Origin: Phallusia mammillata
Lineage: Eukaryota
Reading direction: 5' to 3'
Length of the DNA: 64,000 nt
Assembly (NCBI GenBank): GCA_965637545.1
Contig: OZ281496.1
Location: 20,770,001 to 20,834,000 of the forward strand
Below the pieces are notes generated by a model. The model ran no database searches, was not told the DNA's origin, and saw only the letters and a list, made by a program, of their open reading frames with translations. The translations under genes were made by a program, and so were the position numbers. Shown one piece after another: positions 17,562 through 63,932 of this stretch (the first letter of the stretch is position 1; every line of letters begins with the position of its first letter).

Positions 17562-20500
17562 TTATCGACAAGTAGCACCGAAACGACGTCCGTATCCATA
17601 TCCTGGTTTCAGGCAAGTACAACTGACGGATCCAGCACATCTTTCCTTCCACATTCCACGATATCCGTAGGGTTTCGGGCAAAACGCCACACAACCTCCG
17701 GTACAAACTGGGGCATCGTATTGTCGGCCTTGACCGCAATTACACGTCGATTTTTCTGCGTTGTTGCCTTGGCAACGGCCGCTGCTGCATTGGGCTTTGC
17801 ACGCGTCTAAAGATATATGACGAAAGGTTAGATTTCGATAGAATTGATGTTACATGAACGCAATATTTTAAAATTGTCATGAATATTTTTAATAGCGTGT
17901 TCTAACTGTTAACCGCTTTTTTTCGAGTTTGTTTAACTTTCATTAAAATCTCTTTCGTAAAATTTGAGCGCTACAAAAATATTACGACAAAAAATAGAAA
18001 AGAATATTACCACAAAGTACACAAACTATTGTATTAAACTATTTCAATCAGTGTCAAATGGATCTGTCAATATATCGAGTTTAGTGTTTCACAAGAAAAT
18101 TGTTTTTGCAAATACTAAATAAGTTTGGAATTTTGTACCTACAAAAAAACTTATCACTTACTCTTCGGTGGTTTAACATTAGCTGGGAACTTCATTGGGA
18201 CATTTCCAGCTGCTTGGTAATGTGCAACAATATATATTTCGTTTCCACGCTTCTTTAAACCACATCCTACTTTGCTGCTGCCTTTCCACACGAGCTGCGT
18301 AAAATGACCTGTGAAAAAAAGTTTCTAATAAGTAAACAAAACAATTGTCAAATACGGGGGGTAAACACATACGTGTAGATGCAAAACTATCTTTTGTTTT
18401 GCTGTTGAACACAATTTTATTTAAAAAAATCGAAATAATTTTTCATGAAATCACGGTAAATAGGATAGGATCAGTAACATTGTGAACGTTATTAAAAAAC
18501 TTAAATATTTCAATTACTTGTTTTGTCGTTGTAGCCTGGGTTCTCGTGATCGTAGTTGAGTCCTTCCGCATACCAACCACTAACAGCTTGGTATATATTG
18601 AACTGGTTGTACCGGTTCATTTGCCAAGCAATATTTTCACCAACGTCTTGCTCTCGATCGATACCTGAACATAAAACAAGAGCATTATTAACTAAACATA
18701 GGTAACTAAAATATAGGGGTTACATTTGGCAAAAAGGAATTTTTAATTTCATACCGGTTATCACATCATTAAATGTCTGCTTTATATGGTTTTAACCAAT
18801 TGTTGAATTGAATTATCAGGTGTTTTATTGTTCTAACGCTAAATGAATAAAAATAAAAATGATTTCACAAACAAATAGGCAGAACAAGTGAAAATAATAA
18901 TTGCCGTTACTTTTCGAGAACCTAAAATGAGAACTACTAGATATATTAGGTTGATAGAGAAGTCATACAAAAATCTACATCACTTACCAACTAACGAGGG
19001 TTTAACTGACGCTGCACCATACATTCCATCATTCGCCATCTTGATTGCATACGAGTATGCGCTTGTTGCTAAAATGTCGTCGTATTCGAGCTCTGGGACA
19101 TTGTGAAGGCATCTGTAGTAGTTGTGTGCAGCCAAGCACTGCTCCTGCAAGCTGGCTTGCATCTGGATCTTGTATTGTTTGCATTCACGTTTGACCTCAT
19201 ACTGCAAAGTGTTTTCGGGGCCGAATTTCTTCTTTGTAATGCTTGTTCCGTTGTCCGTATCATTTCCGTAGAGTTCACTCAAGATTGCATAAACGTCCTC
19301 TGCGAATAAAGGAATTTGTTTTATATTTGTTGATTAAGCTTTTATCGCACAGTGCACGTATGAAACACGTTATGTCTCATATCAAAATTAAAAGACATCG
19401 GACCGCACAAATTTTAACGACAATGGATGAACATAAATTTTGCATCGGACAAGCCCTAAAACGTCTATTTCAAAACAGTCTGGCAATTACGGCACACACA
19501 TGTAAATTATAGTACGCTAGGTCTATTGACAGCGTCATAACGAATCAGCCGGTCATCAAGCATGTCAAAGCACAGGCTAGAAAAATCTAGCCGGCGATGG
19601 GATTCGAACCCACGACAGGAGCCTTTCCGGGACTCGCGCTCTACCAAATGAGCTACATATATGTAGCACATATGAGCTGGTCAGTGGTGAGCTGGTTTAG
19701 TTGTAAGAATTGCAAGCACCGTTGTGGCATTTTTACTATGGCATTCGGTAAATCCAAATTTACAAAACAAATCAAAAGTGGGGTGTAGCTTACCGGGTGA
19801 ATATGTGCTGATTGGTTCATCGGTGGGAGTTGGGGTCGGTTTGTAGCCTTGGGGTGGCGCCGGAGGTGCGGATATGAGGGACGGGAGTTTAGGTGGTGCT
19901 CTACATTTCTTGCATAGCCCACAGCTAAGTTTGCAGTTGGACTGCATCCAGTCGGTGTAGTCAGGATATGTGCAATACCTCATTTCTGTAGCAAGTCTTG
20001 GGCAGTCGTCACGTAGATCCTCACAGTCTGTATGTAAAGTCAATGTTAAAAAATGCTCAGTTTAAAATTACTATTAGATTTTGATTAAATGTGCCTAGTT
20101 TTGAGTTGGACTGGGCGATAGAATTTCTCTTATTAACGGTTTAACTTCCGTGGTTGCATTGTTATTGCAAACAGAACCCCTTTAATGCCGAAATAGAATC
20201 ACAAATCAAACAGAAGAGTGTATGACTTTTCTAAAACAATATTCCTACCGTTAGAGCAAGGTGGTGCTTGGTATACGGGTGGAGCTTTGCAGGGCCGGCA
20301 TTCTTCACATGTTACCCTACAATGTTTGCGCACCACAAGACCATGACTGCTCGCTTCCGAACATTTGCCCTTCAGAGCAAACTGGCACCATTGTGGTGAT
20401 TTGTCGAAACAAGTTTTCTCTGCAAAAATGATATTTTTTGTTAATGCAACAAACCGAAATATGTTAAATTTTCATAGATGAGGAATTGATTTTTTCGGAC

Positions 20501-21532
20501 TTTCGGCGGAGGGCACAGACGCTACTTTATCGTATCTTAGCAATAATTTATTTGTATTTGTTTGCTTATTAGTGGAAAACGAACGTGAAAATGTTAGCTT
20601 TAGTGGCTATTAAGTTGATACTTTTTCTATTGGAATATGTTTCTGCTATTGGAGAAATCGTACAATATCAGCATAAATCTAGGTAGATTTGTACAATATA
20701 TTGTACACTAACCATTCAGGCCCAATTTTCAACAAAGTTTTGTTCACACATTTTTAGGCAAAAATATCGCCGGCAAATAATTTCTCGTATGGTCCTTTGT
20801 TCGTTTCTCCTTACCTGATTCGCATTTTTTCTGTTCATACGTGCACGGTGTACAGGAGCCACATGTCTTGGGGCAAGCTCGCTTTGCTGCAAGATTTACG
20901 CCGAGTTTTGGTGAGTTGCATTTTGTAACTTGCAGCATGCAAAAGAGTGTGTTCATGTCCTTGCAGTCTTCATCTGAAAAATTAAACAATTTTTAGCACT
21001 ATTCAAAATAATATATTTAATTTTTTGTATCTCAAACTGAAACTGCTGTTAATTAAAAGTATTTCAACTGTCACTTACCACAACTTGGTCCGTAAAAACT
21101 ACCCAACGGTGAGGATGGAAAACCAGTACCCAAAGATGATGGGTAACCAGTACCCAACGAAGAAGGGTAACCAGTACCCAACGAAGAAGGGTAACCAGTA
21201 CCCAACGAAGAAGGGTAACCAGTACCCAACGAAGAGGGGAAACCAGACCCAGGCGATCCTGTGCCTAAAGATGATGGGTAACCCGTACCTAACGAAGAAG
21301 GGTAACCTGTACCCAATGACGAGGGGAATCCAGTGCCAGGCGAAGGAAGACCAGATCCTGTGGACGAGGGACCCAAATTAGGGTACCCTATCCCTGTAGT
21401 CGATGGTAACCCAACACCCGCCCCACTGGGGTCTGGAGGATTGAATGGGGAAGGTAAACCTGAAGGATCGAACGGATAGAGAAGGTTGGCCTCTGCAATA
21501 AGCACGGCAGACAGAAGGACGAGGTATTTCAT
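17562..21532 (-). CDS. Gene A: secreted ShKx3-CAP-Cys12 protein with N-terminal GYPSSLGT repeats
   Basis: Exons (minus) 21532-21079, 20973-20815, 20419-20249, 20027-19794, 19299-18988, 18664-18518, 18308-18162, 17806-17562. Signal MKYLVLLSAVLIAEA; ShK ends CPKTCGSC, CRVTCEEC, CKLSCGLC; CAP motifs AHNYYRCLH, VGENIAW, HFTQLVW, VAHYQAAGN. Confidence 0.9.
19589..19658 (-). pseudogene. 5'-truncated tRNA-like sequence or tRNA-derived SINE head in an intron of gene A
   Basis: Minus strand reads TAGCTCATTTGGTAGAGCGC...GTGGGTTCGAATCCCATCGCCGGCT: A box, B box and T arm present, 5' acceptor strand missing, followed by TTTTT. Confidence 0.6.
21110..21340 (-). repeat. Coding 24-bp tandem repeat, (GYPSSLGT)n, about 9 units including degenerate ones
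   Basis: Plus strand unit AAGAAGGGTAACCAGTACCCAACG repeated; in frame within the first coding exon of gene A. Confidence 0.9.
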
Positions 21533-24500
21533 GGTGTTTAATTTAAGTTTTCCTGTCCAACCTATGTAAATAAATAAAACAGTATGTAGCTTTTCCTTAA
21601 AATGCCGTAAAAAACACATGGCAAACGCATTGTGTCCGGAATATGTACGTTGTATGCTAACTAAATTTTGAAACGCCCGATAAAAATTTTAAATAAATTT
21701 TAATAAAACGCACTACTAAAGTTCGCCGTAACCTTACTTTTAGTTCTAAAAAACTAACTAAGTGCTAACTGAGCTCCTTCGATATTCTACCGATACAATA
21801 CCCTTCTGACTTTGTAACGGGTAAGTGAGCGCGCTTTAAACGGTTAAGCCACCCCAAATCAACAAAAAATACGACGGGCTGGCACTCCCAATGTTATTGC
21901 GATCACCTGAAGCTATGTGAGCCATAATGCACTGACACAAGGTGCTTTCTAATTTCCCCTTCTTATAGTCTCACTCAGCGGAAGAGAACGCCCATTAAGG
22001 TAAATCAACATAGGGTACTTCGATTGGAGTACGTCAGGAGGGGTGATCAATTAACGTTGGCCATTTGGTAATTGCTCGACTGAGCTGTCAATTGCACCCT
22101 TATTGCTTGGTAAAGGATGGGCCGGCTGTAGTACCACGAAAAGCGCTGTAAATTACAACCCAATGTGTGTTTTGCGCCGTATACAACGACCGAGGCAACT
22201 GAAGGACAAAGGTTAGATGCAAAATCGTGGGCATGACACTGTGGACTGGACTGGTACCTGGGAAATTAATTTTATAAGACTTCAAGGTGTCTTTTATGCA
22301 AATAATTGAAAACTTTCATATATTTTTAAGCTGCGTGAATTTAAAAATAAATGCCTTCAATTACGGCAGATCTGACACATAAATTCAAATCAAGGGTTGT
22401 TTTAATGTTTCGTTCTTGCAATACATAACCCGTGAAAAAAATAATACAATTTAATTCGACTTCTGGAAACATACAATATCAACTACCGACGCAAAAAATA
22501 AAAATAAACAAAAACGAAAATATCCCGTGGGTGTTTAAAGTACGCGTTGAAGGGTTTGGGGCTGGTGGTGTAAATGTATTTAAATTTATTTACACAAGCT
22601 GTCCCTCTGTATCTAAAATTTCAATTACCTGCTTCAAAAGGCCCTTCCACAACTATATTTTCAACATTGGTCTTTTAAACACCTTCCCATCAATTTATGA
22701 CATTAAAGCACTTTATGTGTGATTTCAAATCATGAACCTAAATGGATAAAAAAAAAACTTCAAATAGACTGCCATAACATGCAGAATACAAAACTTCATA
22801 GAAAACACGAACAAAATTTCAACTTCCATCAAAACGACATCGACCACAAACCGTTCAACTAATTACTACAATGCACATCACGTTTGGGGAAGCTCATATT
22901 GCTACCTGGTCGTTACAAAGTACCGTCAATTATCAGATAATCGTATTTTCCAGTCGATTACTAGCGCCAAGTGCTAATTAGTTTTCCGTGTGGTGCGCTG
23001 TAATCGAAGTTGGTTCCCTAAGAGTAGATGCGTTGCTGTCAGCTTGAGATGTTTGTTTTTTCACAGACAAACTACACATTATCGAAAAAGGTGTGGGTCA
23101 CAAAACTTATAATATCAGCCGGATTATAACCAATCACTTTATTCAATCTGTAGGTGCCCATGGGGTTTTGAACTGCATTTACGAACCACAGTGCCGTTAA
23201 CTACTGTACATAAATGTGTCGCGAAATAACCGTTTTTCGGAGTGGCACTTTTATTTTGTTTAGGGGCTTGATAACGTATACCGGGTGTGTCATTAAGCTT
23301 AATTGTCAGCAAAAGCAGCGTTACACATCAGAGTAAAAACGCAAAATTATTTGTTTCGACAATTAGTGTTTTCGGTTAAGTGTGCATCGTGCAAAACAAT
23401 AGCTTGGCGGTTTTCCGAAAGCTTAATAAAGTTCTGCAACATTTCTTTGGTAGATTTCGCCGCATCCCGATTCAAGAGAAATTGTAAGCAAAAAAGTTTT
23501 TTTGCGTCAGCACATCCTCAACACCGAAGTCTTTCTTGTTTTACGTTCGTAACCATAAGGGCTGTGGGAACCCCGTTTAACCCAGAAAACCGGTTTCCCC
23601 AGTACCCCTATACAGCGCGCGAAAATAGAAAAACCTTAAAGAAATTAATGTCTCCAATAAAAAAATCAGTAATAAGTTACGTCACGTGTAAGCAGTTATG
23701 CAAGTTTGTAACCGCACAAATTTGAATGAAAATTAACCATTTATGTAACCTTAATTTATTTACGCTAAGAATATACTAACAGTAATTAGTTAATAGCAGC
23801 ACATAAAAACAACCAAAAAATATAAATTAAAAAATCGGTTATCAAATTTGGCATGTAACTTACCAGTGACGTAACGGGTACACGTTTTCACGTCACCGAA
23901 ATATATAATGGCCGCCAACTAGGCAGGTGTGGAAAGGATTACTGAGCCTAACCCAATGGGTGGAACAATGTGATCGAGATTAAAGAAGAAGTAAATGACA
24001 ATAATTGCTGGGAATGGCAGTTATCCCTTGTATTTTGACAATGGGCGGAGGATTTAAATATGACCTTAGCAAACATAGTTACATTGCTCAAGTTTGGAAC
24101 GAAAAATAACTTCCTTGACCGATATCCTGAAAAAACGATGGGTGATTTGCATGTAATGTTGTTATGTCGAGGTGTTACATGTTTTTGGACATGATTTGCA
24201 TTGAAGTTACATGTTTTTATGTCGAGGCGTTTTTCTCCTGCCTAATTGCTGCATCGGAACACTAGATTATGACTTTAAAAGTAGATCAATCAAAACACGG
24301 AACTGACTAAGGGTTTGCATGATGGTTATGGTAAAGGTTGCAAAGATTACTACATCATACATTGCTTAAACAACCGTATTAAATGCATTTAAACCACACA
24401 AGCTTTTGATCAGTTTTGTGTTTTCATTTAGTTAATTTTGAAAATATATTGTACTTCAAAACAAAGTTATGATTCGGAACGTTTATGGCTTTAGTTTGAA

Positions 24501-24572
24501 ACAACAGGTTTACACTTGGTATGATTCGTGCCGAGATTTTGGCTTCTTTTTCACAACATTTGTGGTTTGAAC

Positions 24573-24720
24573 CAGAGCTCTAAGTCGGGGCCGGGTTCAG
24601 GTTTAGGTTTCTTGAAAAAAAACGGACTTAATTCGGACCTGACTTCATACTCTAAACTCTAAAGTCTAAACCAGTGGTTCCCAACCGGGGAGAATTTTAT
24701 CAGTTCAGGGGAGGAATTTC
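24573..24720. mobile_element. Fragments of two hAT-type MITEs
   Basis: 24573-24650 resembles the left end of the 14878 family (CAGAG..AAGTCGGG.CCGGGTTC..GACCTGACTT); 24672 starts CAGTGGTTCCCAACC. No right ends found. Confidence 0.5.
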
Positions 24721-26159
24721 ATAAAAACTGCCAAAAAAATACATTGTAAATGTTACAGAATATTTTTGTTTGTACATTATTATGTCCATTATAATTTGGA
24801 CCCGGTTCACATTTGGTAAAGGCTTCTGAATGGACATCCCTAATTATAAGGTCTAATTATTATATATAAGGTCATCTGGGATTTTAACCAGTAGCTTTAC
24901 GAGAGGGTAATACGTTAACCACCTAATTATCTCAAATCGTCTTGAATTAATATTATCGTGAGTTTTCTTCACATGACGTCATATTTCAGTTGCACAATCT
25001 CTTTAAAATGAAACTTAAAACGGTTGTTTATTGTTTCAACAGCCGAAATACCATTTACTTTTTTTTTTTTTTTACTTACTCGAAAATAAAATTGAGTCCC
25101 AAGATTCTTTAAAATATTAAGCCCGCTAATCTACTTTTTTCGCTTTTAGCTTTTACCTTATTTAGCTTTTACCTTAAGATGGGGGGATAAAACCTCAGTA
25201 TCTTCTAAACTAGTCAACATAAAAGTAAACAAGATTTTAAAACAAGCAAACGTGTTTTTTACGTGTTACTATATCTACAATAATTTTAGGGGACAATCTC
25301 TACAAGCCTTCCCCACTTAAAGTGGCAGAAATACAGTCGCGTGGCGATTTTATATCTCCCTCAAATAAGTACCATTATAAACAACAACGTCAAAAACGCA
25401 GATACGATACTGTAACATGAATATTTACAAACATTGGGCATCACCAACAGTAGGGTTTCGGAAATGGGATATTACTAAGGGACTTTTAGCGACGTGGCAA
25501 ACTTAGCCAAATTGGCCTATTAGGTGAAGCCATATCCTTAACAACGAATGCATTATGGCTAAATCAACCGCAACAACTCATATCCGTCACCTTACACTTA
25601 GGTTCATCATTTATCAAGTAATTAGCACTTAAGTTTCTGATATCCTGCCAGATGAGACAGATTAAATCAAAACAACACACGAACTTGGCAATTATTGTTC
25701 GTGTGAGGTGGAAACTATTATTAAGCGTGTAGGCCTACTGAGCAAATTTACTTGATTAAATTAATTAACGTGTTTTAATTAGGATTTAAACATCACAGTA
25801 GTTGGATACAATCGTTATGTGGTCAAAAAAGTGTCATTGTTTGTGTTGATTGCGTATTGTGACGTAGAGAACAACTGGGGGATATCATATAAAAGCGAGA
25901 GCAAAAATTTAAGGTCATGCATTCATGAAATTACCAGGGTAAAAGTAAGATCATAAGAGGTGTACATATAAAATAAACAGGTAGAAAAGCGATATGTTAG
26001 CATAATTATGAAGTGATATGTTAGTTTAAAAACGCTCAGAGACAGTTGTTGTATTTTGTGTCTTTTTGGGGTTTTAACGAGCGATTTGTGTTTGTTTTAG
26101 AAAATTCATATTTTCACTATTCAAAAACGCCTGACAGGCTAAAAAAGGAAAAACAAAAA

Positions 26160-29100
26160 ATGCTGCGTATAATAATTTTAACGGCAATTGCAGTTGTAGT
26201 ACTGGGAGAACCCCCAGTAAAAGTCGACCGATCAGGAAGATATGTTACAACTGCATGTTGTAAGTATTTCTAAAACTATTTTACAACTTTATCGGAAAAT
26301 ATTTACAAAATGTATACTTGTGCAAAAAAATTTATGCAAAACAAAAAAGGCCAAGGCCAACTACGAGAACTTTTTAACCTATATTGTACATAAAAATCAT
26401 AGTACGCCAGACCTATTGAACAAAGAGTGTATCCTATACCTGGCATTTTACAAAACAGTTAAACAAAAATTTTATGCAGCGGAACATTGTGAAGACGAAA
26501 AGGGGAGATGCGGTATACCTGGAATGAAAGCGTTTTGCGACCACCGTGATTACAAAGCTCTAGTGCGAGAGAAATGTCCACGTTTGTGTGGAACCTGCAC
26601 ACCTTGTAGCGCTACCAAGATGAGGTGTTCTCTTGGTAAGTAAAATCAAGGAATTAAATGACCTAAAAGATAAAAACTGACCTGAATACTACTATGGTAC
26701 AAAAGAAAATTTATATTACCCACTGAATTGCTCAGGGCCAATGACTTAAAAGTTAATATTTCTTGGCCACATTTTCTTTTACATGTATTTCATACTGTTA
26801 TTAGAACACAATTTCAGTGTTCGCTTGGGCAGTGGTCGGCAAACGAAGACCGTTACCGGGCCGAACATTTTTTCAGGTTCAGTGCATTAAAACATTTTGC
26901 CCATGTATCCCTGGGATGATAAACTAATTTGGGCGTTTTCATTGCTGAATATTTGTTGTTTTGTTGGCCGGTCCTCGATAAAATTTCAGTTTCGAAAACG
27001 CTACGCAGTAAAACAAGGTTGCCGACCGCTGCGCTAAAGATTGTTTTGGGTCAGAAGTTGTATACATGGTGTATTTTTGGATGAACCTTAACATTCTTGG
27101 ATCGTAGAAAGTAACAAACCCTCGTTAAACCTTTGCTTAATTTATGTCCAAAGATTGTAAAGATGAAAACAAGTGGTGCCCTACCATGTACAAGTTCTAC
27201 TGCAATCACCCAGCGTACGGACTGAACATCAGGAAGCAGTGCAAGAAGACGTGTGCTGTTTGCAAATCCTGTGAGCCTGAAAAAGTACCAAGATGTGATC
27301 CAGGTAACATAAACAATCGCAAAACAAACAAACAATTGGATGAAAAAATTTACAAATACATTTCGATTTCCTTTTTTTATCCTGACAAACCAAACAACGC
27401 TAACCAAAACTTCTGCGTTATCTTTGATCAGTTAAAACAACGTAAAGCTGTAATTTTAGGTTGTCGTGATTTTGACCCGGCTTGCAAGTACTGGGATACG
27501 AAAATGAATTATTGCGAGGGTTCGATCTACTCCAAGTGGATGAAGAATAGATGTCCTTTGAGTTGTGGCGAGTGTAGATATTGTGCTTTGCCCACAATTC
27601 CAGCAACCACAAGAAGACCTGTATTCACTAGACCACAGGCCACGACAAAATACATCAGAACTACACCAAAACGTAAGAAGTTGAATTTATGTGAAAGATT
27701 TTGCACATTTTCAAACCTCGTAGTCTTCCATTACTATGAATTGTTAAACAACGTACATAACAAGCCGTCGCCTGTCGTACTTTTCACAAAAAAGCTATCG
27801 CCTTTTATATCCATTTAAATCCCATGTAGATGCAATTTAGGGATAAATATTATCCTCAGTGAACAGTTTACTACTATAAATCGCTGATTTCAGCTTAAAC
27901 CACAATGCCAAAAATTTTACGCTAAAAATTTACCACACCCATGACTTAACGGTAATATCTATCATCCAGCAATCACACGTCCCACCAAGCCAACGCCGAA
28001 TAAGTGTGAACGTGGACGAACCGTTGGAGTTTCTGTAGCTGATCAATGTCTTAACACTCACAACTATTACCGATGTCTTCACGGAGCCCAACCTCTGAGG
28101 TACGACCACGGACTCGAAAGAAGTGCTCAACGTTATGCCAACAGACTACCCACAATGTCTGAACTGCAAGCATCAAGGATTGGTGAGGACTCTTTTTAAC
28201 ATATTGCGTTTACTCTATTTTTGTGCCACGTTAATGTAATGTCGTTCCAAACTTTCAACCCAAATTCACAGAAATAAGGTACGTAACCTAAAACAGCAGA
28301 GACAAAATAGCGTAGAGATTATCAAGTAATCACGAATAATGTGCAGGGATATAGCTGACACCCTTCACAAATATGCGTTGGGACTTACTTTTACCAACGA
28401 CCATTAAGAGTTGCGCAACATTTTGGAGCGTCTAACAGTAATGTATACAATGTCTTTGCTTCAAATTTAAACAATAACGATACAACAACAAGTCATACAC
28501 GAACAAATAAGCATACATCATTTCTTATTTTACAAACTGTCCTACACCTGGCACCTATAGTTTTATATCGTTTCGTTTTTTAAAATTTATTCTTTACTTT
28601 TTTCAGGGGTTGATCGTGGTGACAACGTTGGTGAAAACATGGCCTGGACATTCGACCGTAGCAGGAAACTCGATGTAAATCAGGCGATTAGTCAATGGTA
28701 CGCTGGAGGCCTAAACTACGACTACGATGATCAGGGCTACACACATGAATCTGGTAAATGACAGATCAACACTGAATTTTGTATTTCCGAAGCTTTTGAT
28801 CACTAAAGCTAAATTATAAGCTGTACTAATTTGAAGTCCTAATTAAAAGTGATAAACTTATGGAAACTTTTCAACAACGTTTAGTTTAAATTGAACAATT
28901 ACTTTATGTAAAACGAGTTGAAACTGTTGGATAGCACAGTAAACGTAAATGATGATTTTAAAACATAATATAGCCTAGAAGTTAATTTACCATGACCTCC
29001 ATGACCAATATAGAAGACATATAAGCGGGAAACGAAACCAGAATTCATAACGCAGCAATTAAATGTAAATGTTTCTTTTGGCAGAGCACTTTACACAAGT

Positions 29101-29797
29101 TATATGGCGCGAGACCGAAACTATTGGATGTGCAGTGAAGAAGTACAAGGACGAAACTTACATTGTCGCCCACTACAGGACTATGGGAAATATTGACAAT
29201 GACTATATGTACAACGTGAGAAAACCCAAAGGTAAAAGATTAATTATTTTATGAATGATGTTACAGCTTAATAGAGAAGTGAATGAATCGGAATTAACTG
29301 CATGTAATGAGCACACTGTAAGCTTCAAAAAGTCTAAAGGAGTAAACGATTTTTCAATGACATATATTTGTCTCGAGTAATTGGCAACTTTAGTAGGCTA
29401 TCTTATTATAATACAACTTTTAACAATACAAAAAAATGATTAAAAATTATTGTCAAATACCGAAACAAGCCATACAAAATCACAATGCCAAGAAACAAAA
29501 GCGAATGTGAGGATTACATGTAGTTCGCGTAAATTAATGAAACCATTGTTTACAGACACATGCAAGTCGAAATGCCCTAGGGGAAGTTGTCAAGGTAACC
29601 AACCTCGCTTTGACGATGACTGCGATTGTGACCGATCAGGAAATCCAATCTGTTACGGACTCTGTGTGGTGCATTGTGAACAGCCTCAAGACTTTTATGA
29701 TGAATGGGTAGCCAGTTGTGAGGGCGCCATCTCGTGTACATGTAGCTTGCCAAGCGATTGGGCGCGTGGTGCCCCCAAAGGAGCAATGTGCCGATAA
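26160..29797 (+). CDS. Gene B: secreted ShKx3-CAP-Cys12 protein
   Basis: Exons 26160-26259, 26480-26635, 27154-27303, 27460-27672, 27970-28182, 28607-28753, 29085-29231, 29556-29797. Signal MLRIIILTAIAVVVLG; CPRLCGTC, CKKTCAVC, CPLSCGEC; THNYYRCLH, VGENMAW, HFTQVIW. TATA-like TATAAAA near 25888, AATAAA near 30038. Confidence 0.92.
26830..27031. mobile_element. hAT-type MITE in gene B intron 2
   Basis: TIR CAGTGGTCGGCAA...TTGCCGACCGCTG; flanks CGCTTGGG / CGCTAAAG match only partly (old TSD). Confidence 0.65.
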
Positions 29798-30413: not shown

Positions 30414-31893
30414 CAAGTAGGCTAAACCTCGGTTAATCCGGACCTAATTGGACTACAAAATACATCCGGATTAGGCGAAGATCTGGTTTAATTCCCTTTT
30501 TAATGCCTGACTGTGTCTAATTAGTTCTAGGTCGGTACAAACCATCTTAATTGAGATCATTACCTACCTAACAACAATACGATCAAAAAAAGAATTTATT
30601 GATAAATTAACATCGTACAAATTAATATTAGCATATCAAATGATTTAGTTTGTCGTCTTGGATTGTCGAGGGCATTTCAGCAACTGTTCCATAAGTATAC
30701 CCGCTATTTCGATAATTGGGCCATCCATTTCATGACATGAACACCTAAGTGAATAGCGCTGGAGCGTTTGTATGGCCGCGTAAGCATCGTTTATGCTAGG
30801 TACAAGTTCTTCCTTAACTGCAGCTTGACTTTTGTTTTCTGTATTTCCATCATTGTCTATTAGCCCTTCGACCACAGGATCCATTACGACCTGTGTGATT
30901 TGTTCGTCTGTGAGATCACTTGACGTTTCAACTGTGTTGTCTATTGATACATTATGCGGCGTGCGATCTTCTTTGTGTTTTTCATCTTTACATTCTCCAA
31001 CGATTTTATTATCGGCACCACCAGACCCAGCAGCTTTTTTAACGCGACTAAAGCCATGACGCTTTTTCCAACGATCAATCCAAGCCTTTGAGATTGTCTG
31101 TTTTGGTAATGTGTCCACCGACAGAGCTGCTAAAAACTTCCTTGCCTGTTGGTGTAGCATAGGACCATCAGTACGGAGTTGTGGGTCACACGATCGCTGC
31201 TGAAACCAAATCAATAGAGCTTTGTCCACTTCAGGCTGTGAGCTTTTTCTCAAGCGCTTACTGCTAGACAGAGAGCTACCTTTAGAAAGTTGAGCACGAA
31301 TTTTGTCCGAATTCTTTATTAGGTCGCTTAAAGTCTTTGGGTTTATACCAAAATGCGCGGCAATAGTTTTCTTTTTCATTAAAGGATTTTCATTAACATA
31401 TTGTACGATTTTTAACTTTTCTTCCAGTGTTCTGTCCTGATGACTTCGTTTCTTTCGCTCAGACATCTTTGCAACGTACAGTTTTCAGCAAAGCACAGTA
31501 CACGTTCAGTAAACCAAAGCCAATATCTAACTAGCGTCTGGATACCTAACAAACACATTAACTACACATTACTTTTGGATACCTAAAAACATTGAACTAC
31601 AAACAAGACAATTACATTATACGTCTTATGCACTGCAATAATTCCAGTTAGTCGACCGAGCGCTCACAATAAAGTGTTGTAGACAGTGGAGCGCAATGCA
31701 GTGAAAAAAGTTGCCCACAGCAAGCAGAAAAGCATTTTTTCTCCGGATTAGCCGAAGATCCGGATTATGATAAACCGAGGCGTCTTGTTAATGAAAACAA
31801 ATCTTTTGTACCGCAAGTTTACTTCGGATTAGACGAGGTCCGGGTTACACGCATCCGGATTAACCGAGATTTCCGAATTAACCGCTTGACTTG
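30414..31893 (-). mobile_element. Tigger/pogo-family DNA transposon derivative, internally deleted
   Basis: Inverted ends (CTCGGTTAATCCGG near 30428 / CCGGATTAACCGAG near 31855) and repeated CCGGATTA subterminal motifs enclose the ORF below; boundaries approximate. Confidence 0.8.
30645..31466 (-). CDS. CENP-B/Tigger-type DNA-binding protein (two HTH domains plus C-terminal tail) lacking the DDE domain
   Basis: 273-aa open frame: TLEEKLKIV..IAAHFGINPKTLSDLIKN (HTH 1); VDKALLIWF..DGPMLHQQA..SKAWIDRWKKRHG (HTH 2); then jumps to the tail SIDNTVETSSDLTDEQI..PSINDAYAAIQTL. Confidence 0.85.
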   Translation of the reverse strand: MSERKKRSHQDRTLEEKLKIVQYVNENPLMKKKTIAAHFGINPKTLSDLIKNSDKIRAQLSKGSSLSSSKRLRKSSQPEVDKALLIWFQQRSCDPQLRTDGPMLHQQARKFLAALSVDTLPKQTISKAWIDRWKKRHGFSRVKKAAGSGGADNKIVGECKDEKHKEDRTPHNVSIDNTVETSSDLTDEQITQVVMDPVVEGLIDNDGNTENKSQAAVKEELVPSINDAYAAIQTLQRYSLRCSCHEMDGPIIEIAGILMEQLLKCPRQSKTTN

Positions 31894-34549: not shown

Positions 34550-37165
34550 ATGTTGAAGTTTTTTGCATTAGTCTGTTTGTTTGGGCTTGTGAATTGTTAT
34601 AAGTTTGGAAAGTTCGGGAAAACTTTCCCCAAAGTTCGTGCATGGAAGAATGACAATAATGCTGCATGCGGTGAGTTTATGATTTGATCTTTTTTTGCTA
34701 AATTGGCATGCATTACGTATTGTTTAAGTATAAGTCAGCAAAATTTACATGCTATAGTTTCATTCACTAACGAATGACGTGGGCTTACAGCGCGTCCTAA
34801 GTTGGTACCTGTTTTTTTGTAATGCATATTTGCAGAAACGAAACAAATCGTAAAAGTCGTTTGTATTCACTGAAAATAAACTTTAAATTTGGAAATATCC
34901 ACAAACCAGTTTTATTCGCAATTTTGTACATTCTGTACATTTTCTTCCAACAGAACCCCAGTGCAAAAACCACGCCACAATCTGCAAAGTTCCGGGAATC
35001 ATAAAACTTTGCAAAACTCAACAACTGGTAAAAGTAATGGAGAAAAACTGCCCTCTATTGTGTGGTTTCTGCAAACCATGTTCCAGGGGTTGCATAGGTA
35101 GGTTTTTAACGCTAGCAGCTGCAAGTGGGCTAATTTTTTCATTTGACTTTTTTGAAAATGCACACAATTGGGGCTATGTAGGATAGGGTTGTAAAAAAGT
35201 AACACTAAAACAAAAATCTGATCTTAGATACCAAGGCTTATAGTTTGCTAGTACTAATTTCAGTATACTCAAGCACTTCAGGCAAAGAACACTATGAAAA
35301 GGCAAATAAACTTACAGCTATCTTCATGTAGATTAGTCTTGTTGCATTAAAGGCAAATTAGCAATTGTCATACCTATTGTGCAGATCCCAAATGTAAAGA
35401 CCAGATCTTATTCTGTCCTGCCATGGCAACAAAAAAGAATTGTAATACGGATCCTAATCTAAGACAGCTTTGCCGAAAGTCATGTGGAACTTGTCCAGCA
35501 TGTCCTAAAACACAACAACAAAAATTGAAATGCTCCAAAGGTATGTCATTTACACAAATAAAAGTATCTTTACCCATAATACATCTTTCATCAAATTGAT
35601 TGTTTTGTGCCACAGATTGTATTGATTCATCAACAAAATGCAAACAATATGCTTCTATTCGTGAAATGTGTGGTGATGATTCTCCACACTATGATTTTAT
35701 GCAAAAACACTGCAAACTCAGTTGCAAGCTATGTAGAAAATGTAACTTAACCATGGCTCGTGGCAAACAAATAAAAACTGCAAAGCTAAACAGACCTACA
35801 ACAAGAAAACAAGGTAATGATCCTACTTGTTATGAAGTAAATAACAACAAAGCTTAAAGTAATCAAGTTGATTAAGTTTCAAATTAGATGATTTAGTTTT
35901 ATTCAACTTTTTTACACTTTAAAGAATGCAGGAGAGATGTTGCATCTGAATCAACAGTAGAAGCACAGTGTCTAGGAGCACACAATTTTTTCAGATGTTT
36001 GCATGGAAGTCCACCACTGAATTATGACTTAAAATTGGCGAACCAAGCAAGACAATATGCAATTCATTTGGCTGAAAGTGGAAAGCCAGGTGATAAAGGG
36101 ATGGAACATTCCAAAAAAGGTGAAGTTACCCCTTGTTTGGACACTGTGCAACAGCATTCAGCAAAAATGTATTCTACGATTTAATACAAAATTAAGAGCA
36201 TAACTTTTTAGTGACAGCAAGATATGTACAAATTTACAAAAAAACAAACAATATTGTTTCCAGGAGTGGATCGTGGAAATGATGTTGGGGAAAATTTGGC
36301 ATGGAGATGGGCAGTTAACAACAGATATAATGTCAGCCAAGCAATTTCTGATTGGTACACAGGGGAAATGCAATATGACTTCGATAAACCTGGATTTTCA
36401 AACACAACAGGTAATTTTGAGGCATTCAAGTCACTTAAAATGTAGTTGACTATTTTACTGAGGTTTTAGAAACCACATAAATGTGCGTACTAAAAGCATA
36501 TTTTTGTATTTTTGCATTGTTTTAGCTTATTGGTTTTGACAGGTAAATCACTACAACTAATACGTCTAACAATTTGGGTACAAACCTAATTAGGAATCTT
36601 ATGCAACATGTAAGTTTTTATTTATATTGCTTTTTCTGCAGGGCATTTCACTCAGCTGGTATGGAAAGATACACAATCAGTTGGATGTGCTATTGCAAGA
36701 GTTGGCCATGAGGTCTATGTGGTAGCCCAATACAGCAAAAAAGGAAACTCTCCAAATGGATTTGCACACAATGTTCAGAGATTGAAATCAGGTATTTTTT
36801 CTTTCAATGATTTAACAAGTTCTAAACTAAGTTTTGACACTTAGAATATTTATAAGCATTAATACCCAATTAGCCTTGTTAACCAAAATCTCCATTTCTT
36901 TTTAAATAACTTGGTTTGTTTAGATGTGTGTGAGGCAAAATGTAAAGCTGGAACATGTCAAGGTCAAGATGCCAACACCTCAACTTGCAAGTGCACTGGG
37001 CCACAAAACAATACAGTTCCAGAATGCACCAAACGGTGTGTTGCATATTGTCCCAAGCCTATGAATCATATTGGATCCTGGTTGGAAAGATGTGAAGGCA
37101 GTACCTCGTGCAAATGCATTTCATCCAAAAAGCAAAAACTTTGGCCAGGAGCCCAGTGCATTTAA
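34550..37165 (+). CDS. Gene C: secreted ShKx3-CAP-Cys12 protein (basic, CpG-depleted copy)
   Basis: Exons 34550-34670, 34954-35097, 35385-35540, 35616-35813, 35925-36119, 36264-36410, 36642-36791, 36924-37165. Signal MLKFFALVCLFGLVNC; CPLLCGFC, CRKSCGTC, CKLSCKLC; AHNFFRCLH, MEHS, VGENLAW, GHFTQLVW. TATATAAG near 34468, AATAAA near 37238. Confidence 0.92.
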
Positions 37166-38550: not shown

Positions 38551-39228
38551 TGTAACATCGTAAATCACTCAACCGTAACCTAGGTCACATCTTATATGGT
38601 GTGATTGCACCACAATGTCAGAATCCCCTATGACGTAACAATATCATTGTGGTTATTTCTCTATGCTGTGCTTTTGGCCATTTAGTATTGAGTTTAGTTT
38701 GGACCACGTGTAGTTCGTTAGTTGCTGACTTAAATTTGCAAGCGTTAGATAAAGTAATGAAAGTGACTAAATATAATTTGTTTGTCATTAATAGATGGTA
38801 ATGCTAACTTTATAACTCTGACGAAAAAGGAATAATGTTGCCTTTGCAAGGTAAGCTTGATTTGCATTAAAGTTGTCTTATCGCAATTAACCGTATATTA
38901 AAAGTCTACGTTTTTATCTGTGTAGAACACTTTCTGGTGATATCAAACTGTGTTTATCTTTGATACCCTGGTCCAAAACTCTGGTAAGCTTTATTTCTGC
39001 CGGTATAAATTTAATTTCTGTTTCGCATTTTTGAGTGAATGTTCTCTTTGCAGAAAACCGTGATTATCTTGTCGTATTGAACCGTGTCTATCGTGTCGTG
39101 TCGTGTCTACCGTGAACGTGACGTGATTACCGTGTCGACGTGTAAAATAAATTCACGCGTTTCCAGAAATTGGACTTATCTAGTGTGACGCCAGCGCGGT
39201 ACCAGGCGCGCAAATTCCTGACGTTACA
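38551..39228 (+). repeat. 5' LTR of BEL/Pao #2
   Basis: Direct repeat of 45559-46231; AATAAA near 39146. Confidence 0.96.
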
Positions 39229-39344
39229 TTAAAGTTTTCAGAGTTTCCTGAAAATAAAGTTTTCAGAGTTACCTGGAAATAAAGTTTCCAGTGGCTACTA
39301 TACATAAAGATTCCAGAGTTATCTATAAAGCGAATTTCGCCACG

Positions 39345-45274: not shown

Positions 45275-45558
45275 GTGCATCCGACGCATTCAGGCCACGC
45301 AGTCGTCGAACTGGCCCTGAATTGCGGTGCACAAGATCCTAATTGCGATGAAAGAAGAAATATCATGGACGCTATGCTGTTTGCTGCGTTATACATGCCG
45401 CACTCTGAAATACGCCAGGTTGGAACTTTGCTCACCAACGGCGTTTCGCGACGCGACTGTTTAGCTTTCGTGTGTGTTTTCGCTGTTTCATGATTCGATG
45501 TTTTCTTGGTTTGTTTGTAAATGTGTTTGAAGTGTAAGCACACATTTAGGGGGGAGAA

Positions 45559-46231
45559 TGTAACATCGTAAATCACTCAACCGTAACCTACGTCACATCT
45601 TATATGGTGTGATTGCACCACAATGCCAGAATCCCCTATGACGTAACAATATCATTGTGGTTATTTCTCTATGCTGTGCTTTTGGCCATTTAGTATTGAG
45701 TTTAGTTTGGACCACGTGTAGTTCGTTAGTTGCTGACTTAAATTTGCAAGCGTTAGATAAAGTAATGAAAGTGACTAAATATAATTTGTTTGTCATTAAT
45801 AGATGGTAATGCTAACTTTATAACTCTGACGAAAAAGGAATAATGTTGCCTTTGCAAGGTAAGCTTGATTTGCATTAAAGTTGTCTTATCGCAATTAACC
45901 GTATATTAAAAGTCTACGTTTTTATCTGTGTAGAACACTTTCTGGTGATATCAAACTGTGTTTATCTTTGATACCCTGGTCCAAAACTCTGGTAAGCTTT
46001 ATTTCTGCCGGTATAAATTTAATTTCTGTTTCGCATTTTTGAGTGAATGTTCTCTTTGCAGAAAACCGTGATTATCTTGTCGTATTGAACCGTGTCTGTC
46101 GTGTCGTGTCTACCGTGAACGTGACGTGATTACCGTGTCGACGTGTAAAATAAATTCACGCGTTTCCAGAAATTGGACTTATCTAGTGTGACGCCAGCGC
46201 GGTACCAGGCGCGCAAATTCCTGACGTTACA
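45559..46231 (+). repeat. 3' LTR of BEL/Pao #2
   Basis: After the PPT, followed by TSD CGTTG. Confidence 0.96.
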
Positions 46232-51957: not shown

Positions 51958-54900
51958 ATGAAGATCTTCATCTGCCTGGCGACTGCCTGTCTCCAGTTTT
52001 TCGTTCTGTCCAAAGCTTGTGGTAAGCAAAATGTGTATAATTAACTAGTGCTAACCATGACCATAATTTAGCCAAAAGCGTACACTTTGCCTTAAATTTA
52101 TTGTACGTGAAAGAAATCCTTGAAAGTGTGAAATTCATGTTAAAAATTTGCTCCAGTTAAATTAAAATTCATCTTGAAATACAGACCCAGATTGCAAGGA
52201 CAAAGTCACCAACTGTGATTTGGATGTCATTACCCAAAACTGTCAAAATCCCTTCATCGGTTACTTTGTCAGAACCAGGTGTCCTGCTGCATGTAAAGTG
52301 TGTACGCCATGTGCACCTGTCCAACCCAGATCTTGTACACCAGGTATGAAACATCAAAGAGTTGGACTATTGTATATTTTCAAAGAATAAAACAAGGAGA
52401 TAAAAAACAAATTTTGTACATCAAAACCATATTGATAAATGTTTCGACCTATAAGATCTCAATACTGCAGCTGGCCGTATATGCGCTAGTGTTGCCAAAA
52501 CAAATTAAAATCTGAAGTAAATGTAACTGTGGTCTGAAATGGCAGTGTAAGTTAGTTTTTCCGAAAGCTGCCCAGATGGCCATTATGACTGAAAAGGTTA
52601 AATTTGAGATAACTTAAAACGACCCTTGCAGAAAACGACCCTTGTCAAGACAAGTCTAAAAACTGTTACCTGTTTGCCCCCACTCACTGTCAATCTTCCA
52701 ATCCCATCACAAAAGCATTGGTTAAAAGGAATTGTAAAAAATCTTGTCGACTTTGCACACCCTGTGAATCTCTTCTTGAACCACCACCTTGTGACCCAGG
52801 TAAGAAAAAGTTGCTAAACTATTTATAACTTACCATTTTAAATATTCATTCCGACGATTATTTAATTTTTTTGAAAGCGTTGTTGATTATTTATAATTTA
52901 AATCCGCAGAAATATACCAAAGGAACTTATTTTCAATTCAAAGTAAAAACACTAAATTTTTGTTTTACATGACAAATTTCACTATGAATTTCCAAATAAG
53001 AAAAGATTTACAACAAGCCTATAATGAACATGTATACTTGCCTTACTTAAAATTTACTTCCATTAAAATCATTTTTGTGTCTTTCTAGAATGCGCCGACA
53101 AACTGACCGAGTGTCCACCATGGTCTGAAGGAGGTTATTGCAAGAATCCTTTGCACGCGAAATTTATGAAGAAAAACTGCCCACTTAGTTGTGGTGTATG
53201 TACTCAATGTCTACTCGTAAGACCCCCTAAAGTTCCTCAGCCAGAAATACGACCACCACAACCTGTCACAACCACGGAACCAGTGGTTATCGTTACCACG
53301 GAAGAGCCAGCACCAGAAACCACCATGCAATCAGTCGTAACTACTGCTTCAGCACCACAAACAACCGGACGATCAGTAAGAACCACGGCGCCAAAGCCAG
53401 AAACAACACCACAAATGACCGGTAAGTAATCTAAAAAATAATATAACGACTATACGTCTTTTTTTGCTAAACCAGAATTTAAACTAGAATCTCCCAGTTC
53501 GTTGCTTTGTGCATGAAGACTACAAAGAACCTAATGCTTATTGATTTAAAATTAATAAAACATCAAATCATTCACCCTTATGAGTTCAAGAAATTTTATC
53601 AGTTCCGGCATTGTCGGTATCTTAATAAGATATATATCTTGAACTTGATGTTTAATACAGTTGAGAATTCTCGGAATTTATGATTTTTACATGAAAACTA
53701 TAATAGCAATTTTCACTTCAGGTTCCTCACCTAAATGCATCAGAGGCGAAGCGAGAGAAGCCCACGTTTCTACTCAATGTCTGAACGCTCACAACTACTA
53801 TCGGTGCCTGCACGGTTCCAAGCCATTGAAATACGACTACAGACTCCAAAAAAGTGCTGAGAATTACGCCAAGAAGCTCGCACAGATGGGTTCCGTCACA
53901 AACCTCGAATCCTCTATAATCGGTAAAGAAGCCGGGATGTCTACTATACTTTATTTAAATTACCTGAGTGCAACATTCGCAAAAATTTCTTATGTATATC
54001 GCTTTGGAATGGCAACATTTTATACCTACGCAAGCGTTGGAACAAAATATTATGTTTTTGCAGTCAACCATTATTGCTAACTTTTAATTTTGCATTTTGT
54101 TTCATGAAGGACTTGACCGTGCTGATGTAATTGGCGAGAACCTGGCCGCTTCAACTGATAAAGATTATTCAATTAGTCAGGCAATTACTGCGTGGTACGC
54201 CGAAAGTATGACATACAACTACGGAATAGAAGAGGTAGAAGAAGCTTCAGGTACGTTTCTCCCTACAACTGATATTTTTTTTCAAAAATTTAGATTTCTC
54301 AAAAAGAGTCAAAATTTGTAGCTTACTTGTAAAAGTAAAAAAAATCGTTGATCTCTTAATTCTTGTCGTTTCAAAATGATCGTTTTCTTCGCAGCTCATT
54401 TCACCCAGATGATTTGGAACGAAACCAAAAGTATCGGTTGTGCCCTACGCAAAGTAAACAACAAGATCTTCGCAGTTGTTCATTACGAAGTAGGCGGAAA
54501 TGAACCGGGTTTCTTTATTGACAACGTCGGCATCCCCAATGAAGGTAAATATAATTCCTAATGGTATAATTAGACATCTCAACATAAGGTATGTAAAAGT
54601 GTTTGAAACACTATAGGTAATCGTTACGCATTCAAGCTTTCAGAAAATATATTTGAAGGTACAGAAAAAAGTATTTGATTATTTGAGGATATTAACATAT
54701 TTTGCACTTTATTGTTGTATCAGGGGGTTAGCAAATGTCTAATAGTTTCATTTCATACATTAAGGCCTAAATTTAAATTGACTAAAAATGCACGATAAGT
54801 TTAAATAGGTGTTCTGCTTAAAAGGTTTTCGGGTTGAATTTTGGATGTTAAAAATGTTAAAGCTTTTTTAAACCACGCAACTATATTTTTGCAGATGTTT

Positions 54901-55142
54901 GTCAAATTGATTGCAATAATGGATACTGCCAGGGAAATGAAGGCAAACATTCCTGCCAATGCGATTCCCGAGAAGGAGGTTACGACGCCCCTATGTGCGC
55001 TGAACGATGCGTGGTACAATGTCCAAAACCACAGGGGCACACTGGACAGTGGATGAGCTCATGTGAAGGAAGGTTTCTTTGTACTTGTTCTAAGAAACCA
55101 ATCCCAGAGCGTAATATTCATGCTGGTGCTTTTTGTCGCTAA
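51958..55142 (+). CDS. Gene D: secreted ShKx3-CAP-Cys12 protein with a long mucin-like Pro/Thr linker
   Basis: Exons 51958-52021, 52185-52343, 52632-52799, 53089-53421, 53722-53922, 54110-54250, 54395-54544, 54895-55142. Signal MKIFICLATACLQFFVLSKA; CPAACKVC, CKKSCRLC, CPLSCGVC; AHNYYRCLH, IGENLAA, HFTQMIW. TATAAAAG near 51695. Confidence 0.92.
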
Positions 55143-56273: not shown

Positions 56274-57706
56274 ATCACAGCACAGGACAAAACATACGGT
56301 AGAAGTTCGCAAACACCAGATCACAATGTCGCATTTACTTAATTAACTGCGACAGGAGGTCCGAAACATGATTTGTCAATAAAGTTGGATTTGGTCGCTA
56401 CACATTTTAACTTCCTCGCAAGCTTTGAGCTAGCGAGTCAATACGAGCTATTTTGGTAAACAACTATAGCAAAGTTTGCACAAATTATGTCGCAATCGCT
56501 ACACCAAAACGTCAAAAGAAAATCATTATCTCCAATGTTAATTACATTTAATTGGCTTACGGTAACATGTATACTTATTTTGTAATATTGTTTATATTGT
56601 GGGAACACTTTATTTAAAACAGCAGGTAGTCCTGAAGTCCTTATTGCAACTCTGTAATATTTAGAATGAGAAACTATAGGTTATATTCTGGTTCCTGATG
56701 GTCTTTAAATGGCTGGCACTGGTCCATTGGTTGCTGGAAGAGAGCAAGGGGCACACACATGGCAAGATTTTGGGCAAAGTCTTCTGATGGAACCTCTCAA
56801 GTTGTTGTCATGGCAAAACTTCGGCGCGTAAAACGCCGGGCACAGTCTGTTTTTGTCAACACAGGTGTCGTTTTCTGCACGAATAACATGTTTCTTGTTA
56901 GCCATTTTTAATAACTTCTTTTTAGTTTTAGCCTAAAATTACTCCGATTCCCAGCAGTTACATTAAATGCGTTAGTCAGTTGTAATAAACTCACTATCTA
57001 ATCTTAAACAATGTACATACCACAGTTTTCTTTTCCATGCAGCACCTAGTAATGAGCGGACAGTAGCTTGAAAAGTGCAATTTCCGAGAGCGACAAGAGA
57101 CAGAAGGATAAAAAGCTTCATTTTTTAGCGAATTTGTTAATTTGAAGGCGATAAAAAACTTTTGCAAGCCCAGTATAAGATCGTTTTTCACGAGTTTTTG
57201 AAATAAATGGCATAGAAATATCGAAAATAAAAAATAATTTTTAATTCTGATCTTGGTTATTTTAACTACAAACTCTACATCCGCGAACTGAGTTTAAAAC
57301 TATCACAGCACAGAACAAAACATACGATAAAAGTTCGCAAACACCAGATCACAAAGTCGCATTTACTTTCTTATTAACTGCGACAGGAAGCCCGAACATG
57401 ATTTGTCAAAATAGTTTGGTCGCTACACATTTTAACTTCCTCGCAAGCTTTGAGCTAGCGAGTCAATACGAGCTATTTCGGTAAACAACTATTGCAAAGT
57501 TTGCACAAATTACGTCGCAATCGCTACACCATAACGTCAAAAGAAAATCACTATCTCGAATGTTAATTACATTTAATTGGCTTACGGTAACATGTATAGC
57601 CTACTTATTTTGTAATATTATCTATAATGTGGGAACACTTTATTTGAAACAGCGGGTAGTCCTTATTGCAACTCTGTAATATGTAGGATAAGGAACTATA
57701 AGTTAC
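56274..57706 (+). repeat. Direct repeat pair of about 410 bp (56274-56686 and 57302-57706)
   Basis: Both start ATCACAGCACAG(G/A)ACAAAACATACG and align with scattered differences through TTGCAACTCTGTAATAT..GAA(A)CTATA. Confidence 0.9.
56688..56874 (-). pseudogene. Relic of a gene E paralogue: ShK2 exon fused to the linker part of the next exon, with a premature stop
   Basis: ENDTCVDKNRLCPAFYAPKFCH..CPKSCHVCAPCSLP matches 63932-63790, then LPATNGPVPAI*RPSGTR matches LPATRKPLPATQRPAATR (about 63380-63328). Confidence 0.8.
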
Positions 57707-59013: not shown

Positions 59014-59020
59014 TCTACTG

Positions 59021-61798: not shown

Positions 61799-63932
61799 TT
61801 ATCTGCAGATGGCGCCGGGCAAGATGCCAGTTCTGGGATCCACTTTGCTGTTGCAGGTGCACACAACTGATCCAGAACAGGTGGTTTCCCAGTCACCCTC
61901 GTGGTCTCGGGGTCTGGGACACAATGCAATACATGGTCCTCCACATCTTGGGGAGTCGGTTCGATCATTGCATTGACATTTGGATACTTGGGAGTTTCCC
62001 TGTTCACCCTGACAAGCCCCGTTCAAACACAAAGCATCGCAGCGACCTAAAAAATTGAATAATTAAAAAAATTAAAATATTAAATTTTTTTGGTATGCTT
62101 TGAGGGTAAACATTTGTTGGCCATAAACATTTAGCTAGTTAATTGGCCGATAAAAGATAAATTTGCACGAGGCCACAAACATCAATTACAATTACACGTT
62201 CCAGAACTTATCTGTGGGTAAATGTAAAACTATAAGTAATGCTCTTTGATATGTTACCTTCATGGGGCATTGGAATGTTGTCCATGAAAAAGCCAGGCAC
62301 GTTTCCCATTTCTCGGTAGTGAGCAACAGCGTAAAAGTTGTCGCCTACTTTGCGAATCGCACAACCAACACGGGTGGTGTCTTTCCACATCATCTGGGTG
62401 AATTGCTCTGCAAGATCAAAGTGGTTAATGTGGTGTCTAGTAAAATTAACAAAGAATGGAAGAGATTGTAATAGTAACAAAATCAGTCCATAAATGTCGT
62501 GGAATATAAATATTTCGCCTAAAAGCATCTTCAGTTCCTTATTCGAGTAGAAAACTGATCATATTTATTAGACTGGAGATGCGTATTAATTAGACTGGTA
62601 TGATAAACTGGAGTTTTCTATTTACCTGTTTCAGGTGTGGCTTGCTCGTTGTTGTAATCGTACAGCATACCCTCGGAATACCATTCGGTAACAGCTTGAC
62701 CTAAAGAGTAACGGTTGTTCTGGGCATGTTTCATGGCCAAGTTTTCTCCGACGTTGCTACCTCGGTCCAAGCCTAAAATACAGGAGAAATCAAAGAAACA
62801 GAACTAAAGGAAACATTTTTACAAGAGCTTATTTAAGGCGGCTTTAAACACAATACATTTTGTTGAATAAGATATAACTTGAAATATTTACTGATAGTAG
62901 ATGATTTTAGATATCCGATGCTAGCAAGCTTGTTGGCATAAAGTTGAGCGCTTCGTTGCAGAGAACTGTCGTACTGCAGTTTTCCAACTCCGTGCAGACA
63001 ACGATAATAGTTGTGTGCGTTCAAACATTGCTGAGCCTGAGACACGCCCTGGAGTTCAGGTTCTTCACAAGTTTGCAGAACATCTATAAAATCACACAAA
63101 GAGGATGGTTCAGTTTACGAAAAAACAACAACAAATGGTCACATTCTATTACCCCATGCATTTGTGTATAAAAGTAAACATTTGCTCGTCAAAACTAAGT
63201 GTCTATAGTTGCGTTTAAACAAGAACCAGATGAAAAATCAGCTTACTGTCTGGTCGTTTTGTCTCGGGACGTCTGGTAGTTGCTGGTCGTCGAGTAGCAG
63301 CTGGTCTTCTGGTTGCAGCTGGTCTTCTGGTTGCTGCTGGTCGTTGAGTGGCTGGCAATGGTTTTCTGGTTGCTGGAAGGTATGCTGGTGATTTGTGAAC
63401 AGGTGGTTGTCCGCATGATTTACAGATGCCACAAGATTTTTTACAGCTTCCGCTCATGTATTCGTAATGAATGGAGTGCACACCACAATGACCTTCTCCT
63501 TTCCAGTAGTGACAATGTTCTCCTTCATCTTTGCAATCTACATTGAAGAATAAATGAGAGTTTGCGATCATTTTTTCATTTTGCATACATTGACTAAACC
63601 ACGTGTGCTTACTATTCTCCTATGTTACGAGAGGCAATATACATTAAAACATATTGTCAAGCCAGAAAACCAAATCATTTCTGCTACTTTTGGTGATACT
63701 ACGTAAGACTCTATCAGCGTTTGTGTAGCGCCTGCTTTAATTTGCAAAGATCAGTAACTAATACCTTTGTCACATTCGTTTTTGATAGGCACCGGCAAAG
63801 AGCAAGGGGCACACACATGACAAGATTTCGGGCAAAGATTTCTGATGTAACCGCTCCAGTCGTTTTCATGGCAAAACCTTGGCGCGAAAAACGCCGGGCA
63901 GAGTTTGTTATGGTCAACACAGGTGTCGTTTT
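61799..63932 (-). CDS. Gene E: ShK-CAP-Cys12 protein, 5' part outside the window
   Basis: Exons (minus) 63932-63765, 63537-63247, 63083-62892, 62772-62626, 62407-62258, 62046-61799. CPKSCHVC, CKKSCGIC, (PAATRR)n linker, AHNYYRCLH, VGENLAM, EQFTQMMW, C-terminal 12-Cys exon ending GAICR. Confidence 0.9.
63255..63375 (-). repeat. Coding 18-bp repeat (PAATRR)n in the gene E linker
   Basis: Plus strand (TGGTCTTCTGGTTGCAGC)-like units; translation PATQRPAATRRPAATRRPAATRRPATTRRP. Confidence 0.85.

Follow-up and report, generated by a model that had tools for sequence, protein, structure and literature searches.

A cluster of ascidian genes encoding predicted-secreted proteins with three ShK domains ahead of a CAP domain and a 12-cysteine tail of no known class

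A 64,000-nucleotide stretch of the Phallusia mammillata genome (contig OZ281496.1, positions 20,770,001 to 20,834,000; the window) holds a row of genes to which an initial annotation assigned a peculiar architecture, namely, three ShK-like domains (ShKx3), a linker or stalk, a CAP domain, and a C-terminal 12-cysteine region (Cys12), under the label inverted CRISP-like. Are these genes real, are their products CRISP relatives, and what might such proteins do? The overall interpretation given at the time is partly supported by the analysis reported here.

Gene models were derived from six-frame motif scans and splice sites inspected manually. The analysis confirmed an ascidian cluster of ShKx3-stalk-CAP-Cys12 genes, made up of five intact neighbouring paralogues. 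Gene A (21532-17562, minus strand, 622 aa) consists of coding exons 21532-21079, 20973-20815, 20419-20249, 20027-19794, 19299-18988, 18664-18518, 18308-18162, and 17806-17562. On the plus strand follow gene B (26160-29797, 455 aa; exons 26160-26259, 26480-26635, 27154-27303, 27460-27672, 27970-28182, 28607-28753, 29085-29231, and 29556-29797), gene C (34550-37165, 450 aa; exons 34550-34670, 34954-35097, 35385-35540, 35616-35813, 35925-36119, 36264-36410, 36642-36791, and 36924-37165), and gene D (51958-55142, 487 aa; exons 51958-52021, 52185-52343, 52632-52799, 53089-53421, 53722-53922, 54110-54250, 54395-54544, and 54895-55142). Gene E, again on the minus strand, has exons 3 to 8 in the window (63932-61799; 63932-63765, 63537-63247, 63083-62892, 62772-62626, 62407-62258, and 62046-61799), and its signal-like exon 1 and exon 2, with the first ShK domain, were located in the neighbouring stretch just past the window end (L001:1521-1431 and 1271-1110, minus strand), giving a complete gene of 8 exons and 482 aa. 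All introns of A to E are GT-AG and in phase 1, there are no internal stop codons, and pairwise identity among the paralogues is 34-41%. The first description of the locus was therefore accurate in its eight-coding-exon, all-phase-1 layout of A to D, the fit of the six visible exons of E, the orientations (-,+,+,+,-), and the wide divergence of the sequences. Further family members were absent from 40 kb downstream and 10 kb upstream, and searching the genome with a single Cys12 exon gave at least 5 matches, with no added family member among the matches listed.

The number of cysteines in exons 2 to 8 is the same in A to D (8, 8, 7, 3, 0, 1, and 12) and also over the six in-window exons of E. 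Pfam detected ShK in all 14 ShK exons scanned, 12 of them above the curated cut-off and exons 2 and 3 of gene A only with an E value of about 0.04. It placed CAP in exons 5 and 7 of every gene, downstream of ShK, so that the proposed domain order is borne out by exon models and Pfam alike. The last exon had no Pfam family match in any of the five genes. The N terminus is hydrophobic in 5/5 genes, and the signal peptide that had been placed ahead of the CAP domain is accordingly predicted from hydrophobicity only; beyond it, neither another hydrophobic segment nor a GPI-like tail was seen in any of the five (best 19-residue hydropathy, ≤0.85). Pro, Thr, and Ser make up 36-47% of the stalk in A, D, and E, and the stalk is short in B and C. 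Exon 1 of gene A carries a long Gly/Ser/Pro/Thr repeat after its signal-like start, with a 24-bp tandem repeat (21100-21345) encoding a Gly/Ser/Pro/Thr/Tyr octapeptide repeat, and low-complexity N-terminal extensions are likewise found in Ciona P0025 and Clavelina P0012.

The cluster has database counterparts. Residues 158-622 of gene A are identical to a Phallusia mammillata database protein (P0001, 465/465) and gene C matches another at 449 of 450 residues (P0002); both were retrieved by the Cys12 profile, and we take these records to derive from mRNA. In contigs of four public runs, whose RNA nature is a guess, all seven introns of gene A were skipped exactly at the predicted sites, and a single 1,718-nt contig spans its exons 3 to 8. 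The initial annotation would have been undone by exons that are not co-transcribed, which is not the case for A and, given the database protein match, probably not for C either; the splicing of B, D, and E is predicted. A short, highly covered repeat in intron 4 of gene A (19574-19657) looks tRNA-like by eye.

Two minus-strand splice joints were also observed (21559-27183 and 27275-29603), each in one contig (sides of 96 and 25 letters). Both have canonical GT/AG ends, and the shorter-sided joint is weak. They hint at untranslated 5' exons of A that lie antisense inside exons 3 and 8 of B, in which case one A transcript would begin beyond the 3' end of B and cross it.

The surroundings of the genes are rich in mobile elements. 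A Pao/BEL-type LTR retrotransposon (6045-13422; 1,740-aa open frame) has 721-bp terminal repeats that are 100% identical and is thus a very recent insertion. A second element of this type lies between C and D (38551-46231; 99% identical terminal repeats, 1,850-aa open frame), and the N-terminal frame of a Tc5/CENP-B-type transposase lies between B and C (30648-31484, minus strand). An alkaline phosphatase exon upstream of the cluster (15251-15700, plus strand) is a possible synteny marker. A sixth copy, absent from the original gene count, was found at 56700-57291, or about 57121-56700 in a narrower placement (minus strand): this fragment X reproduces part of the 5' end of gene E in degenerate form, with a signal-like exon and one ShK exon (Pfam match, 56753-56866), 75% and 86% DNA identity to the E 5' region, no stretch matching E exon 2, and two flanking 410-bp direct repeats. 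The two Pao/BEL elements, the Tc5-like transposase, fragment X, and the minus-strand joints crossing B antisense could be read as signs that only some of the genes are active and that B, D, or E have recently been silenced. We regard this as very improbable, since these three genes retain all their open frames, splice sites, and cysteines at about 35-40% identity to their paralogues.

The ShK domains are authentic in their six-cysteine pattern, PF01549 match, and ShK fold, and this module is common in the Phallusia genome (at least 46 matches). All 15 domains carry two extra cysteines, one before and one three residues after the domain. The toxin dyad, defined as Lys-aromatic at six and five residues before the fourth cysteine, with the register set by alignment to 2MCR, a filarial ShK-like peptide, was found in only 2 of the 15, as K-W in the third domain of B and as K-F, aligned with the K-Y of 2MCR, in the third domain of D, and in none of the 27 ShK domains of nine Ciona and Clavelina proteins. 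A channel-toxin role for the family is for this reason unlikely, as far as sequence allows a judgement. The dyad is, however, neither necessary nor sufficient for channel block in the part of the literature covered here (PMC6409789), so that its absence is compatible with channel effects. The same source discusses CAP as a surface anchor for ShK/CRISP domains (PMC6409789), and the third domain of D has the channel-blocking domain of MMP23 as its closest PDB match (E value, 2.8e-4). Secreted channel modulators of CRISP-like action, in which CAP would anchor to membranes and ShK would target K+ or other channels, whether in predators, in foulers, or in the cilia or sperm of the animal itself, are nevertheless improbable, considering the scarcity of the dyad, the lack of an evident dibasic-flanked release of single domains, and flanking cysteines that likely tie the modules together. 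Against this reading we also count that ascidians are filter feeders and are not known to have a venom system.

The CAP region has a PF00188 domain and the alpha-beta-alpha fold, and it contains four family-specific cysteines. In sequence comparison it is closest to GAPR-1, with yeast Pry1 almost equally close, and gene C is the most similar to both; the resemblance to GAPR-1/GLIPR2 proposed at the outset thus stands at the level of sequence. The Cys-less V-A/V-x-Y...GN motif, noted earlier as VAxY...GN without the CAP2 cysteine, is present in 5/5 genes, whereas the motif quoted as YDF.KPGFS..TGHFT is literal in C only, partial in A and B, and lost in D and E. The Pry1-like aromatic loop, which we take to be the sterol-binding motif, has the same distribution, being complete in C alone, kept in part in A and B, and missing from D and E, so that lipid binding may not be general in the family. 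A phase-1 intron between G and HFT is shared by the cluster genes and by CAP genes on two other contigs, C7 and C6. Those on C7 (L006-L008) are GLIPR2-like and have neither ShK nor Cys12, and one of them seems to carry two CAP domains. The CAP tetrad of two His and two Glu (PMC6193718), mapped onto GAPR-1 by alignment, is complete in 0/5 cluster genes and 0/7 Ciona and Clavelina CAP members examined: A and D are without the first His, B without the first His and the second Glu, and E without both His, and C has Gly at the second Glu, with a Glu one residue later. This makes an enzyme role unlikely; according to the same source, the tetrad is dispensable when CAP domains bind sterols and fatty acids (PMC6193718).

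The last exon of every cluster gene encodes the Cys12 domain (for example, 36924-37165, plus strand, in gene C), which is, judged by sequence, the hallmark of the family. It is predicted to be all-beta (structure model pLDDT, 89.4), and no family or fold match, including EGF, was found for it in Pfam, PDB, Foldseek, or VIA. The cysteine spacing (3,4,9,1,10 / 3,13,5,1,13) fits two EGF-like six-cysteine units loosely, and Atlas lists EGF clusters for the domain at 0.84-0.86, which we treat as a lead only.

When the Cys12 profile was run with hmmsearch on 1.84 billion protein representatives, 14 matches were obtained, from Phallusia (2), Ciona intestinalis (3), Ciona savignyi (1), Clavelina lepadiformis (7), and a fragment without species (1). 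All 13 named matches are thus ascidian and span two ascidian orders; none came from stolidobranchs or larvaceans, a weak negative. Seven of the 14 are ShKx3-CAP-Cys12 proteins, one is N-terminally truncated, four are ShKx3-stalk-Cys12 proteins without CAP, one has P0042 as its longer model, and one is a fragment. P0042 has by eye one ShK-like motif, undetected by Pfam, before CAP and Cys12. The CAP-less members, known from database gene models only, are a Ciona cluster (P0016; several near-identical loci, 14 members listed) and Clavelina P0010, P0013, and P0017; none appeared in the Phallusia genome among the matches listed for the one-Cys12-exon search. Database members with the same architecture or CAP-less or one-ShK variants include Ciona XP_002123836 ('ectin-like'), LOC100180998, and LOC100184100 and Clavelina LOC143465408, among others. 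A possible distant one-ShK relative, its exon linkage predicted, lies on contig C6 (L010:8560-3622, minus strand), with a split ShK-like domain, a Pro/Thr stalk, a CAP domain with the same G|HxT and post-CAP intron positions as the cluster genes, and a two-exon 12-cysteine tail that is shorter and EGF-like in spacing (weak Pfam EGF, E value of 0.2).

In the full-length tree, gene A groups with Ciona LOC100180998 and C. savignyi H2Z4W2 (support 97/97; 91/97 in a second set), which indicates that the duplications are probably old. In the CAP plus Cys12 tree, built without the CAP-less rows and P0042, monophyly of the Phallusia members is weakly rejected (p-AU, 0.04), with most nodes unresolved and long branches. 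The notion of a lineage-specific expanded family consequently holds insofar as all named matches are ascidian, whereas a recent expansion is improbable.

What these proteins do can be approached from their anatomy and by analogy. At a rough probability of 0.45, the family would consist of non-enzymatic, two-ended binding or cross-linking proteins of a coat outside the cell, for example mucus, the tunic, or some other surface layer. ShKx3 and the Cys12 tail would be the constant binding ends, as 4 of the 14 matches are without CAP; each ShK domain would likely be closed by a fourth disulfide from the flanking cysteines, and the stalk, likely O-glycosylated, would keep the ends apart. CAP would be an optional cassette that lets the protein bind lipids or membranes, best preserved in C and A, and its in-frame loss or gain is permitted by the phase of the introns. 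Its likely origin is exon shuffling onto a CAP gene of the GLIPR2 kind, in a course independent of CRISPs, and the duplications likely took place early in ascidian history. A bolder version, which we consider doubtful, makes Cys12 a novel, disulfide-rich beta fold that only ascidians possess, ShKx3-stalk-Cys12 a modular tunic or mucus cross-linker invented by tunicates, and CAP a GLIPR2-derived lipid-binding cassette gained and lost through phase-1 exons; if true, a cytosolic GAPR-1-type domain was recruited to secretion independently of CRISPs. The five functional readings weighed in this study are not fully exclusive of each other. In one of them the family would serve humoral defence, released from haemocytes or pharynx, with a CAP that would scavenge lipids or bind microbial membranes and ShK domains that would act on microbes or immune cells; we hold this to be possible, though unlikely.

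Among known systems, the ascidian Urabins are alike in being extracellular CAP proteins. Binding to proteins of the vitelline coat is described for CiUrabin and HrUrabin (PMC9265791), and fast divergence would suit reproductive proteins that bind the EGF-rich vitelline coat or coat sperm or eggs. Urabin, however, as far as the consulted part of that source describes it, is a PR domain with a GPI anchor on sperm and without ShK arrays (PMC9265791), whereas the cluster proteins carry ShKx3 and Cys12 and have a C terminus that is polar and closed by cysteines, with neither a hydrophobic segment nor a Urabin-type anchor signal in 5/5. A gamete-interaction role is thus quite improbable, and the extracellular coat remains our preferred setting. 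For Oikopleura house proteins, ShKT appears merely as a domain label in the part of the report consulted (PMC3390340).

The identity as an inverted CRISP was rejected, and the label first given to the locus does not hold. CRISPs have a hinge and an ShK-like Crisp domain C-terminal to CAP; here ShK is N-terminal, the Crisp domain (PF08562) matched 0 of 14 family proteins, the tail is modelled as all-beta Cys12, the CAP is of the GAPR-1/Pry1 type, and a CRISP-like His/Glu/Glu/His cavity is complete in none of the five genes. GAPR-1/GLIPR2 itself is a cytosolic, N-myristoylated single domain without a signal peptide. The cluster proteins, in contrast to it, are multidomain, Cys-rich, and hydrophobic at the N terminus, and they differ from both it and Pry1 in an incomplete-tetrad CAP, with its four family-specific cysteines, set between the ShKx3/stalk region and the Cys12 tail. 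As in vertebrate CRISPs and molluscan and annelid CAP-ShKT proteins, a signal peptide (here predicted) is combined with CAP and ShK-like domains in a single protein. CAP and ShK are paired in more than 600 database proteins, and the cases described in the parts of the sources seen differ in order, with molluscan ShK/EGF arrays C-terminal to CAP (PMC6409789) and CAP upstream of ShK in Glycera (PMC4202326). The PRY2-like venom allergen of Chrysaora fuscescens likewise combines a PRY-like CAP with ShKT, but with one ShKT and, in what we saw of its description, no known Cys12 (PMC4848628); the Cys12 profile matched no cnidarian protein among the 1.84 billion representatives.

Nothing is overturned by these results, as CAP-ShK pairings are common and the family's database members, which are named automatically, already carry automatic ShK/CAP annotation. 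We found no paper citing six of the family's database identifiers and, in the openly accessible papers searched, no description of the family, its ShK-before-CAP order, or its tail. Taken together, the family is real and apparently undescribed, an ascidian variation on the known CAP/ShK mosaics that includes one domain of no assigned class. Its natural CAP-less and one-ShK variants make it possible to tell the roles of the modules apart in Ciona, an animal in which knock-outs are made routinely, and it offers what is likely a clean case of CAP and ShK modules assembled independently, in the order opposite to that of CRISPs.
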